A DNA stretch of 64,000 nucleotides, taken from assembly GCA_964605265.1 (NCBI GenBank), contig CAZSBO010000004.1, positions 488 to 64,487 of the forward strand. Direction: 5' to 3'. Source of the stretch: an uncultured Brevifollis sp. (GTDB lineage Bacteria > Verrucomicrobiota > Verrucomicrobiia > Verrucomicrobiales > Verrucomicrobiaceae). The notes beneath the pieces were generated by a model that saw nothing but the letters and a program-made list of their open reading frames with translations, was not told the DNA's origin and ran no database searches. The position numbers were made by a program, and so were the translations under genes. Positions within the stretch are counted from its first letter, which is position 1; each line of letters begins with the position of its first letter. This document shows positions 57,963 through 60,699 of this stretch, piece by piece.

Positions 57963-58871
57963 ATGTCCGCCATCACGCACCTGCAATTTCTCGAGTCCGA
58001 GGCCATCTACGTCCTGCGCGAAACCGCCGCCCAGTTCTCCAATCCCGCCCTGCTCTTCTCCGGCGGCAAGGATTCCATCGTCATGGCCTGGATGGCCCGC
58101 AAGGCCTTCCACCCGGCGAAGATGCCCTTCAAGCTGCTCCACGTCGACACCGGCCACAACTTCCCCGAGGCAATGACCTACCGCGACTGGTTCGTCAACG
58201 AGATCGGCGGCCAGCTCGTCGTGGGCAGTGTCCAGAAGAGCATCGATGACGGCCGCGTTCAGGAGGAGAAGGGCCCCTACGCCAGCCGCAACAAGCTACA
58301 GACCGTTACCCTGCTCGACACCATTGAGGAGCATCAGTTCGATGCCTGCCTCGGCGGCGGTCGCCGCGACGAGGAGAAGGCGCGCGCCAAGGAGCGCTTC
58401 TTCAGCCACCGCGACGAATTCGGCCAGTGGGATCCGAAAAATCAGCGCCCGGAACTCTGGAACATCTTCAACGGCCGCAAGCACTTCGGCGAACACTTCC
58501 GCGTCTTCCCGCTCAGCAACTGGACCGAGATGGACGTCTGGCAGTACATCCGCCAGGAAAACATCCCCCTGCCGAGCCTGTATTTCAGCCACACGCGCCG
58601 CATCATCGAGCGCCACGGCCAGCTGCTCGACGCCGAGACCGGCTTCATCCCGCTGCTCGACGAGGAAAAGCCGCGCGTCGCCGAACGCGTGATCCGCTTC
58701 CGCACCGTCGGTGATGCCACCTGCACCGGCGCCGTGGCCAGCACCGCCGCCACCCTTGACGAGATCATTGCCGAGGTCGCCGCCGCCCGCCAAACCGAGC
58801 GCGGCACCCGCGCCGACGACAAGCGCTCCGAAACCGCCATGGAGGACCGCAAGAAGGAAGGCTATTTTTGA
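57963..58871 (+). CDS. cysD: Sulfate adenylyltransferase subunit 2
   Basis: FSGGKDS, GGRRDEEKARAKER, WDPKNQRPELW, RKKEGYF. Confidence 0.97.
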   Translation: MSAITHLQFLESEAIYVLRETAAQFSNPALLFSGGKDSIVMAWMARKAFHPAKMPFKLLHVDTGHNFPEAMTYRDWFVNEIGGQLVVGSVQKSIDDGRVQEEKGPYASRNKLQTVTLLDTIEEHQFDACLGGGRRDEEKARAKERFFSHRDEFGQWDPKNQRPELWNIFNGRKHFGEHFRVFPLSNWTEMDVWQYIRQENIPLPSLYFSHTRRIIERHGQLLDAETGFIPLLDEEKPRVAERVIRFRTVGDATCTGAVASTAATLDEIIAEVAAARQTERGTRADDKRSETAMEDRKKEGYF

Positions 58872-58893
58872 GGCGGCCTGGCCGCCTCAAAAA
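58865..58893. repeat. Perfect 14-1-14 palindrome over the cysD stop codon
   Basis: TTTTTGAGGCGGCC-T-GGCCGCCTCAAAAA. Confidence 0.9.
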
Positions 58894-58894
58894 G

Positions 58895-58922
58895 AAGATG
58901 GGAGATCGGAGATGGAAGATCG
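58895..58922 (+). repeat. Heptamer tandem array RAGATSG x4
   Basis: AAGATGG GAGATCG GAGATGG AAGATCG. Confidence 0.9.
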
Positions 58923-58926
58923 CAGC

Positions 58927-59286
58927 ATGCAATTCGAAGACTTGGACGCTTGGCAGCAGGCCAAACGCCTCGTTGTCGGCATCTACGAAATGACTTCCCG
59001 CCAGGGGCTGGCCCAGGATTTCGGCATCAAGAACCAGATCCAGCGCTCCGCGGTTTCGATCATGAGCAACATTGCCGAAGGCTTCGAAAGGATCTCGCTC
59101 AACGAAAAGCGCCCGTTCGATTCGATTGCCCGCGCCTCCTGCGGCGAAACCCGATCGCTCCTCCATCTGATTGATGAACTCTTCCCGGCCTACCGCGAAC
59201 CCTGCCTTCAACTCCGCCAGCAGGCCGTTCAGACCGGAAAACTGATCTCCGGTCTGCTCCGCTCCACCGAACAACGCTCCTCCTGA
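58927..59286 (+). CDS. Four-helix-bundle protein (TIGR02436/23S rRNA IVP family)
   Basis: FEDLDAWQQA, QIQRSAVSIMSNIAEGFER, IARASCGE; alternative start 58912. Confidence 0.92.
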   Translation: MQFEDLDAWQQAKRLVVGIYEMTSRQGLAQDFGIKNQIQRSAVSIMSNIAEGFERISLNEKRPFDSIARASCGETRSLLHLIDELFPAYREPCLQLRQQAVQTGKLISGLLRSTEQRSS

Positions 59287-59352
59287 TCTTCCATCTTCCA
59301 TCTCCGCTCTTCCATGTCTTCCTCCCATCTCCCATCTTCCATCTCCGATCTT
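59284..59352 (-). repeat. Inverted heptamer arrays CSATCTY (two blocks of four flanking the cysN ATG)
   Basis: TGATCTT CCATCTT CCATCTC CGCTCTT, then CCATGTC containing the ATG, then CCATCTC CCATCTT CCATCTC CGATCTT. Confidence 0.9.
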
Positions 59353-60699
59353 CCAAGCACGGCTCCGGTGGTCGACGCCGCCGAATCCTCGCTGCTCCGC
59401 TTCACCACGGCCGGTTCCGTGGACGACGGCAAAAGCACGCTCATCGGCCGCCTGCTGTACGACTCGAAGTCGATCTTTGAAGACCAGCTGCTCGCCGTCG
59501 AGGAATCCTCGAAGCGCCGCGGCGACGCCCACGTCAACCTGGCGCTGCTGACCGACGGCCTGCGCGCCGAACGCGAGCAGGGCATCACCATCGACGTCGC
59601 CTACCGCTACTTCGCCACGCCGAAGCGCAAGTTCATCATCGCCGACACCCCGGGCCACATCCAGTACACCCGCAACATGGTCACCGGCGCCTCCACCGCC
59701 GACCTCGCCATCATCCTGATCGACGCCCGCCTCGGCGTCATCGAGCAGACCATGCGCCACACCTACCTGGCCAGCCTGCTGCGCATCAACCAGATCGTCC
59801 TGGCGGTCAACAAGATGGACCTCGTCGACTTCGATGAGGACACCTATCACAAGATCGTTGCCGACTACATGGCCTTCGCCCAGGGCCTGGAATACACGCC
59901 CAACATCCGCCCCATCCCGATCAGCGCCCTCAACGGCGACAACGTCGTCGAGCGCTCGGCCAAGACCGAGTGGTACGACGGCCCCAGCCTGCTTGAACAC
60001 CTCGAAACCGTGCAGGTGCACGCTGAAACCGCCGCCGACAAAGCGCGCTTCCCCGTCCAGTGGGTCATCCGCCCGATCTCCGATGCCGAGGACCCCAAGC
60101 TCGGCAACCTGCACGACTACCGCGGCTTCGCCGGCCGCATGGCCAGCGGCACCTTCCGCGTCGGCGACGAGGTCAGCGTGCTGCCCTCGGGCATGAAAAC
60201 CCGCATCACCGGCATCCACACCTTCGACGGCCCGCAGGACGAGGCCATCCCCCAGCTCAGCTACAGCCTCACCGTCGCCGACGAAATCGACACCAGCCGC
60301 GGCGGCATGATCGTCAAGGCCAGCGAACCCGTGCACACCGAGCAGGAGTTCGACGCCATGATCTGCTGGTTCAGCGACAAGAAAACGCTGAAGCCGCGCG
60401 GCCGCTTCCACCTGCGCCACACCACCAACGACGTGCGCGCCATCGTCACCGATGTGCTCTACAAGGTGAACATCAGCACCCTGGAAAAGAGCCAGGACAG
60501 CCAGGAGTTCGCCCTCAACGACATCGGCTGCGTGCGCATCCGCTGCGCCACCCCCATCTTCTTCGACGCCTACGCGCACAACCGCATCACCGGCAGCTTT
60601 GTCCTCGTCGACGAGCAGACCAACAACACCGTCGCCGCCGGCATGATCCTCAAGCCGGTCGCCGAGGACGACTTCGAAGACGCCGCCGCCGCGATCTGA
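59314..60699 (+). CDS. cysN: Sulfate adenylyltransferase subunit 1 (GTPase), no APS kinase domain
   Basis: GSVDDGKST, EREQGITIDVAY, DTPGH, NKMD; ends at TVAAGMI. Confidence 0.96.
   Translation: MSSSHLPSSISDLPSTAPVVDAAESSLLRFTTAGSVDDGKSTLIGRLLYDSKSIFEDQLLAVEESSKRRGDAHVNLALLTDGLRAEREQGITIDVAYRYFATPKRKFIIADTPGHIQYTRNMVTGASTADLAIILIDARLGVIEQTMRHTYLASLLRINQIVLAVNKMDLVDFDEDTYHKIVADYMAFAQGLEYTPNIRPIPISALNGDNVVERSAKTEWYDGPSLLEHLETVQVHAETAADKARFPVQWVIRPISDAEDPKLGNLHDYRGFAGRMASGTFRVGDEVSVLPSGMKTRITGIHTFDGPQDEAIPQLSYSLTVADEIDTSRGGMIVKASEPVHTEQEFDAMICWFSDKKTLKPRGRFHLRHTTNDVRAIVTDVLYKVNISTLEKSQDSQEFALNDIGCVRIRCATPIFFDAYAHNRITGSFVLVDEQTNNTVAAGMILKPVAEDDFEDAAAAI

Follow-up and report, generated by a model that had tools for sequence, protein, structure and literature searches.

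A four-helix-bundle gene between complementary heptad arrays at the cysD-cysN junction: a candidate intervening-sequence-like cassette of Verrucomicrobiales

Why should a small gene, framed on both sides by complementary arrays of seven-nucleotide repeats, stand between cysD and cysN, the genes encoding the small and large subunits of sulfate adenylyltransferase? The question is raised by a stretch of 64,000 nucleotides from an uncultured Brevifollis sp. (contig CAZSBO010000004.1; the whole stretch is called the window below), in which an open reading frame (ORF) of the PF05635/TIGR02436 four-helix-bundle family lies between two arms of tandem heptads in a cassette of ~460 nt. Examination of this locus, of its host genome (G000; assembly of 4.05 Mb, 88% complete), of 30 members of the genus and of 401 Verrucomicrobiales genomes leads us to read the unit as an arm-gene-arm cassette resembling the intervening sequences (IVS) of 23S rRNA, in which an RNA stem would mask both the ribosome-binding site of the cassette gene and the start of cysN, and in which the protein would recognise the heptads. 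We give this reading, taken as a whole, a probability of roughly 0.55. What is new here is the cysD-gene-cysN layout across Verrucomicrobiales, the existence of two clades with their own heptads, the loss of the gene in one close relative, the generality of the arms in the family and the dispersal of the arrays throughout the genome.

Results

A PF05635 gene is framed by heptad arms between cysD and cysN

All features of the locus lie on the + strand. The cassette gene (58927..59286, 119 aa, or 124 aa from an alternative ATG at 58912) matches TIGR02436 with 88.9 bits (cut-off 24) and PF05635 with 91.3 bits (cut-off 33.8), and these profile scores confirm that a TIGR02436-type gene separates cysD from cysN, as had been proposed in a preliminary description of this DNA made from the letters alone. 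The family motif, given as GxxRxxxSxxxNxxE (PMC3936711), is present as R-x3-S-x3-N-x2-E and reads R-SAV-S-IMS-N-IA-E in the translation; in the alignment of homologues, R40, S44 and E51 are invariant and N48 nearly so. The nearest solved structure is 2GSC (XCC0516; E 2.7e-10), which has 5 chains, and XCC0516 is described as a homopentameric ring (cited in PMC4990558).

The left arm (58894..58925) is built from four RAGATSG heptads (58895-58922) and includes the Shine-Dalgarno (SD)-like GGAG/GGGAG of the cassette gene. The right arm, delineated by inverted-repeat search, falls into two blocks: block 1 (59285..59313), with ~4 CSATCTY heptads between the stop codon of the cassette gene and the ATG of cysN, and block 2 (59320..59356), with four to five heptads that are translated as CysN residues 3-14 (MSSSHLPSSISDLPS). 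Direct reading and repeat search agree with the earlier account of four upstream heptads and of two complementary blocks, one on either side of the cysN ATG. In the window, the arms amount to inverted repeats of 27-32 nt that are 81-89% complementary.

Heptad arms characterise this branch of the family

Each gene was given an arm score, that of the best ungapped inverted repeat joining its 5' flank to its 3' flank, with a threshold of 13; the window locus scores 19.5. In the set from the genus, taken to be Prosthecobacter, 26 of 34 copies score at least 13, against none of 125 shifted controls and none of 170 shuffles. In an independent, broader sample covering more than 10 phyla, 64 of 77 homologues (83%) are armed, against 0/280 controls. 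Period 7 fits best at 60 of these 64 loci and period 8 at the other 4, with a median arm of 29 nt, or about four units. The enrichment of heptamer arms in both sets indicates that the arm-gene-arm layout is characteristic of this branch of the family. It bears out the survey suggested in the preliminary description, which anticipated inverted period-7 arrays around family genes, and supports the idea of a repeat-delimited unit at an operon junction. It also weighs against coincidence, namely the view that heptamer repeats are common junction fillers or leader elements among which a small gene merely survives, with no functional tie between the two.

After rotation of the period-7 left arms, a common core emerges on the sense strand: AG is present in 62 of 68 arms, followed by T in 48, G in 12 and A in 2 (the window's clade being among the A pair), preceded by a purine in 59 of the 62, and trailed by three variable bases 3' of the core. 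Left arms are richer in G than in C in 74/90 cases, and 45 of 62 cassettes sit between co-directional genes according to a crude ORF call. Prosthecobacter relatives also provide 46-nt arms of an 8-nt unit, AATGAGAC (L049), and 53-nt arms with a period of ~11 (L064).

The window genome itself holds five members of the family, and three of the four others are bracketed by inverted period-7 arrays, each with its own sequence. Two members, L004 (contig C99) and L005 (C182), stand on very long branches (1.5-2.5 changes per site); the arms of L004 are weak (13 nt), and L005 has a TGACCAAGG-type repeat 66-118 nt from the ORF.

The cassette is an old resident of the junction

Of the 30 closest homologues in the order, 22 occupy the cysD-cysN junction, with 40-61% identity. 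These junction homologues divide into two well-supported protein clades that differ in heptad type. Clade A, found in genera of family f1 and in two genera of family f4 (g44 and g58), carries arms of the GAGATGG type or of a GGAGTTC variant, and clade B, found in genera g4 and g32 of f4, carries arms of the GTAAAAG/GTGGGAA type. All 22 junction loci are armed, and in most of them the cysD stop is directly followed by a small GC hairpin, whose sequence varies. Arm type follows the protein clade and not the host family, as g44 and g58 of f4 carry clade-A arms. Furthermore, L071, which belongs to clade A and has the same heptads, is located between the gene of an ATP-binding cassette (ABC) binding protein and its permease gene; the whole unit must therefore have moved at least once. 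Both the clade-bound arm type and the moved copy that kept its arms are difficult to reconcile with coincidence.

Closer to the window, genomes G000, G026, G034 and G016 carry the cassette gene, and most other genus members have a spacer of ~50 nt, no heptads and a CysN start that reads MDVLVNPTESSLLRF. G011, whose CysD is 99.3% identical, has neither the ORF nor the left arm; what it retains is the left half of a hairpin, the two right blocks and a CysN start encoded by heptads. This hairpin, a feature absent from the preliminary description, is the outermost piece of the left end of the cassette: in the window, it is a GC-rich, perfect 14-bp stem (TTTTTGAGGCGGCC / GGCCGCCTCAAAAA; 58865..58893; -20.9 kcal/mol) that spans the cysD stop codon. 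Its counterpart in G016 (L010) has two substitutions, both of which turn G-C into G-U on the + strand and leave A-C mismatches on the other strand. Because half of the hairpin is retained in G011 and because the hairpin-arm-gene-arm unit occurs in other genera, deletion is the better reading of this empty site. Polarising the site by a tree of the flanks was tried and set aside, G011 being basal at 54-65% support with distant outgroups and pairwise identity making G016 the outlier. The patchy presence predicted for the element is found at this junction, some sites being filled, one being empty yet still bearing arms and others looking never occupied.

The ratio of nonsynonymous to synonymous divergence (dN/dS) of the cassette gene is 0.22-0.5 inside the window's subclade. 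For the clade-B gene at cysD-cysN in genus g4, it is 0.03-0.05, with a dS similar to that of cysD, which fits vertical descent of a functional protein. The cassette protein is under purifying selection. All Prosthecobacter copies elsewhere that share at least 65% identity occupy orthologous sites. A synonymous divergence of the cassette below that of cysD was considered as a sign of recent transfer and was not decisive; windowed identity shows the cassette only slightly above its flanks. Two of the 22 junction copies, L076 (G384) and L072 (G153), are interrupted by an in-frame stop (one TAA, one TAG), both arms being intact. Overall, these comparisons portray the cassette as an old, mostly vertical and often-lost junction resident across the order, moved on occasion to another operon junction, and they do not support the recently hopping element that had first been envisaged.

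Other inserts occupy the same junction in other species. By eye, L025, L026, L029, L032 and L028 hold a putative antitoxin (~97 aa, LSPEWMAEIDRR) together with a ParE/RelE-like toxin (~95-120 aa), the insert being shortened in L029. A 91-aa acidic ORF overlapping the cysD stop (L018, L034), a 355-aa ORF (L033), the start of a PIN-like ORF (L031) and a palindromic element of ~90 nt (L021) were also seen. The occurrence of several unrelated inserts suggests that the junction is tolerant of small inserts, as a hot spot would be, and inserts such as the putative toxin-antitoxin pairs speak in favour of coincidence.

The distal right arm apparently became the start of CysN

The cysN gene (59314..60699; TIGR02034 545.5 bits) has homology from residue 28 onwards and carries a heptad-encoded N-terminal tail. 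Its start codon (59314..59316) lies within a degenerate heptad, CATGTCT, has no SD 5' of it, and is the sole in-frame start common to G000, G026, G016 and G011. At all clade-A junctions, the sole in-frame cysN start lies at the heptads or ahead of them, and PIS-x-LPSSIS is an example of the residues encoded by the arm, while in clade B the arm ends just before the cysN ATG. In the window's clade, the distal right arm appears to have become the cysN start and its first ~14 codons; a repeat array would here have been co-opted as the start and N-terminal tail of an enzyme of an essential pathway.

The arms are predicted to pair in the transcript

The predicted duplexes of the left arm with block 1 (-41.2 kcal/mol) and with block 2 (-40.6 kcal/mol) are isoenergetic. 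In the minimum free energy fold, 58899-58929 is paired with 59326-59355, with 22 contiguous pairs, and the equilibrium ensemble favours the distal block, 22.5 of 29 left-arm bases being paired with block 2. In the computed ensemble, the SD and start of the cassette gene are unpaired at 0.11 on average. The proximal block before the ATG, whose unit number goes from 3 to about 6 among close relatives, is also present in the window's subclade, g21 and g22, so that the left arm has two predicted partners of equal strength. The computed duplexes uphold the earlier proposal that the left arm can pair with either downstream block and mask the SD and start of the cassette gene.

Two further readings of the arms were tried and dropped. 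A G-quadruplex was set aside because four G-tracts are missing from most arm types; in the window, the left arm has only GGG, GG and GG tracts. Species-level covariation of the arms within clades is unconvincing (cognate versus non-cognate 21.9 versus 18.4 in clade A and 17.7 versus 16.0 in clade B) because arms of one type cross-pair. Separately, a DNA contig of metagenome run X3 joins 58919 to 59285 with 15 other letters in between, and would be a gene-less hairpin if real; its shorter side is 21 letters, it may derive from another repeat locus, and it is not used as evidence.

What the stem would do for the operon can be conceived in several ways. The preliminary description proposed translational bridging, in which the stem loops out the gene, brings the cysD stop near the cysN start, restores coupled translation and so renders the insertion harmless, the protein being irrelevant. 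Indeed, the base of the predicted stem puts 58898 beside 59356 with the cysD stop ~27 nt upstream, at 22/22 loci the end of the right arm falls at or within the cysN start, and the predominance of co-directional neighbours noted above is as bridging would have it. However, with the distal block the cysN ATG would be in the loop and its first codons paired, which would hinder initiation, and the ~50-nt spacer of the cassette-free relatives implies that tight coupling is not ancestral. Bridging furthermore leaves unexplained the purifying selection on the protein and a conservation of the heptads beyond mere pairing, and we regard it as quite improbable. The same description saw in the element a candidate mRNA intervening sequence that neutralises or regulates itself at the RNA level. 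The genome does encode RNase III, but a cut in the stem formed with the distal block would damage cysN; clean or constitutive IVS-like excision at cysD-cysN in the window's clade is doubtful.

Arrays of the same type are dispersed in the genome

A pattern search for at least three consecutive RAGATSG units found 38 arrays at 33 loci in G000, and none in the reversed control. The modal array has about four units (17 of the 38 have 3.9). Typically, a stop codon is followed by a G-rich array, or the C-rich complement runs up to a start codon. Only the cysDN locus among the 33 has a cognate gene, and arrays are paired at 3 of the 33 loci, the rest being mostly solo tandem arrays. The claim that heptad arrays delimit the unit therefore stands with the qualification that they are not private to it. 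Two of the five family genes of the genome have arms of the two period-7 types that are most frequent in it, AGATGGG and AGGGATG, and an orthologous array was seen to vary in unit number among four close relatives. A GGCGGC-NNN-GCCGCC hairpin is sometimes found between the stop codon and the G-rich array. A GC hairpin as a regular 5' feature of the dispersed arrays was rejected: it abuts ~8 of 33, and by folding energy it is found at 11/31 against 38% of random 34-mers, which is no enrichment.

Some junctions of G000 consist of two or three different heptad arrays in a row. At C133:11300-11420, C151:8560-8690, C131:11228-11330, C162:7760-7852 and C240:3340-3400, an array of a second type directly follows a GAGATGG array, the second types being GAAACCT, GGAACYT, GAGATCT/GAAATTT and GGGATGA. 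A gene-less hairpin, with GAGATSG units and their complement ~70 nt apart, is located at G000:C145:7872-7981 between the end of a DUF1553-like gene (...LNLDETLSKS) and the next ORF; the armed gene L001 occupies the same kind of junction elsewhere in G000.

Hits of type A, the heptad type of clade A, number 74 in G000, 92 in G026, 55 in G034 and 41 in G016, which form the window's cassette-bearing clade. G011, which lost the gene, has 36, and G063, in which the gene was not found in an assembly 74% complete, has 46, while 35 other Prosthecobacter, in which the clade-A gene was not found or its presence was unchecked, have 0-5. Clade-A bearers in other genera have 110 (G153), 28 (G289), 19 (G375) and 13 (G258) hits, G153, whose copy of the gene bears a stop, thus still holding the most arrays of this type, and further clade-A bearers have 8 (G262), 4 (G387), 2 (G384) and 2 (G396). 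Counts of type A and type B are 74/0 in G000 and 0/31 in G060, a clade-B genome. Furthermore, at least 10 hits of type B are found in 11 of 21 g4 genomes with a clade-B gene, versus 3 of 32 without. Expansions of arrays are restricted to lineages that have, or recently had, the cognate gene. Since the sequence type of the arrays changes with the clade of the resident protein, recognition of the heptads by the protein is probable.

The distribution of the arrays has something to offer to coincidence too: they far outnumber the genes (33 loci for one cognate gene), they outlast the gene in G011, and four-unit heptamer repeats between aligned ORFs have been described without reference to a PF05635 gene (PMC4692102). 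Set beside the arm survey and the fidelity of arm type to protein clade, these points leave coincidence highly improbable in our view.

The same distribution can also be read at the level of DNA, in the manner of repetitive extragenic palindromic (REP) sequences and their RAYT transposases. The protein would then act on (single-stranded) DNA arrays and spread or maintain them as commensals, the arms of its own gene being recognition sites and RNA pairing a by-product. As such an account expects, the repeat whose inverted copies enclose the gene is found at 33 loci of G000, each of two independent protein clades goes with a repeat type of its own, there is one gene per type with mostly vertical inheritance, expansions are confined to lineages with the cognate gene now or recently, and arm mismatches on the sense strand display no RNA-specific wobble bias (G:T 12, A:C 20). 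It is countered by the protein itself, which in profile searches matches only PF05635/TIGR02436 and has no HUH, recombinase or nuclease motif, and by the dispersed arrays, which are mostly solo, vary in unit number at orthologous sites as slippage-prone simple repeats do, and display no insertion event with defined ends. The G excess of the left arms and the stop/start position rules moreover point to the transcript. We consider this DNA-level account unlikely. Strand asymmetry and codon-related positions favour a role at the RNA level, and the lack of wobble bias together with the REP/RAYT parallel keeps one at the DNA level in play.

Neighbouring genes

Upstream of the cassette, cysD (57963..58871) matches NF003587 with 440.8 bits and TIGR02039 with 407.7 bits. 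It is preceded by cysH on its 5' side, and an opcA-like gene and gdhA are encountered farther out. No transposase was found near the cassette among the neighbouring ORFs (cysH, cysD, cysN, gdhA and opcA), in line with the earlier statement on this point. No ORF of the size of a reverse transcriptase is present within 3 kb of the cassette gene, and no template/variable repeat pair adjoins it.

Discussion

The closest parallel to the cassette is the IVS of 23S rRNA. ORF-bearing IVS, in which the ORF is S23p, are known from Coxiella burnetii, Leptospira, Brucella and Xanthomonas (PMC4990558). The Coxiella IVS is 428 nt long and is closed by a 28-bp terminal stem that RNase III cuts in the middle; 3-4 tandem GACAGAT heptamers, variable in number, stand just before the S23p ATG (PMC4990558). 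The cysD-cysN cassette shares with it the protein family, the size class (~460 nt versus 428 nt), a terminal stem of ~20-30 bp around the ORF (arms of 27-32 nt and 22 contiguous predicted pairs in the window), the absence of a mobility enzyme, and tandem heptamers of variable copy number directly 5' of an ORF with a weak or embedded SD (58895-58922 before the ATG at 58927), including an AGAT core common to GACAGAT and GAGATGG. It differs in that its host is a protein-coding operon and not a 23S rRNA helix, that one arm is translated within the downstream gene, where the RNase III excision of an IVS is hypothetical and would damage cysN, and that its arms belong to a genome-wide array family, none being reported for IVS.

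The dispersed arrays recall heptameric simple sequence repeats. GGGNATC repeats between aligned ORFs were described in Xanthomonas and Nostoc by Rehm et al. in 2015, with a preference for four units, the G-rich strand after stop codons or the complement before start codons, and a proposed G-quadruplex (PMC4692102), and four-unit heptanucleotide elements are known from Geobacter metallireducens (PMC2700814). The G000 arrays resemble both in their 7-nt units, the preference for about four of them, their variable number, their dispersal mainly between co-directional ORFs and their stop/start position rules. In contrast, these two studies draw no link to PF05635 genes, and most arms considered here, with an RAGT core and three variable bases, lack four G-tracts.

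A looser kinship exists with REP/REPIN-RAYT systems, in which inverted copies of a repeat that is scattered over the genome (33 loci here) likewise enclose a single-copy gene, repeat type co-varies with gene clade and inheritance is mostly vertical. Unlike a RAYT, the cassette protein is a four-helix bundle without the HUH/Y1 motif of IS200/IS605-like transposases, and the repeats are tandem heptad arrays instead of single palindromes, with no evidence of transposition found. Avd, the accessory protein of diversity-generating retroelements, is a pentameric four-helix-bundle ring with a presumed affinity for nucleic acids. The cassette protein falls in the same fold family and would presumably share this affinity but, unlike the avd setting, its gene has no reverse transcriptase or template/variable repeats beside it.

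In the IVS-like reading that we favour, the left arm would pair in the transcript with either right block into a stem of 22-28 bp. This stem would hide the SD and start of the cassette gene and, when formed with the distal block, also the beginning of cysN; it would be long enough to serve as an RNase III substrate, and cutting may follow. The arms themselves would be a local inverted pair of the genome-wide family of four-unit heptad arrays, and each subunit of a pentameric ring may bind one heptad through the R-A-G-T/A core.

Several observations weigh against this reading. We know of no nucleic-acid-binding or catalytic activity of the cassette protein. Sense-strand arm mismatches are without an excess of G:T over A:C, so that nothing in them favours RNA over DNA pairing; within a clade, own arms pair no better than the arms of other species, and covariation is seen only between heptad types. 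With the distal arm inside the first codons of cysN, an RNase III cut there would sever the cysN ATG from the body of the gene. RNA runs match only conserved parts of cysD and cysN from other organisms, and no contig falls on 58910-59368. As regards the arrays, 36 hits persist in G011 without the cognate gene, four cassette-bearing genomes hold few arrays, and the type-B association, at p = 0.001, is given by a statistic that ignores phylogeny, as does the array/protein association overall. On the whole, the preliminary interpretation is retained for the armed unit and its pairing potential, and is abandoned for recent mobility and clean excision.

More broadly, we tentatively put forward the possibility that PF05635 proteins are sequence-specific readers of tandem heptad arrays, so that a protein clade and its array type would constitute a genome-wide system, with rRNA IVS and armed cassettes as the protein's own autoregulated locus. 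Such a system may be a TRAP-like RNA regulon at operon junctions or a set of REPIN/RAYT-like commensal repeats. Three puzzles are joined at this locus and its relatives. To our knowledge, the large PF05635 family, which spans several phyla and has a solved structure, lacks any known function, the heptameric repeats of bacterial genomes count as a recognised yet unexplained oddity, and rRNA intervening sequences have been without an accepted origin for 30 years. If true, the reader model would account for an excess of four-unit heptamer repeats that has long been noted in bacteria.
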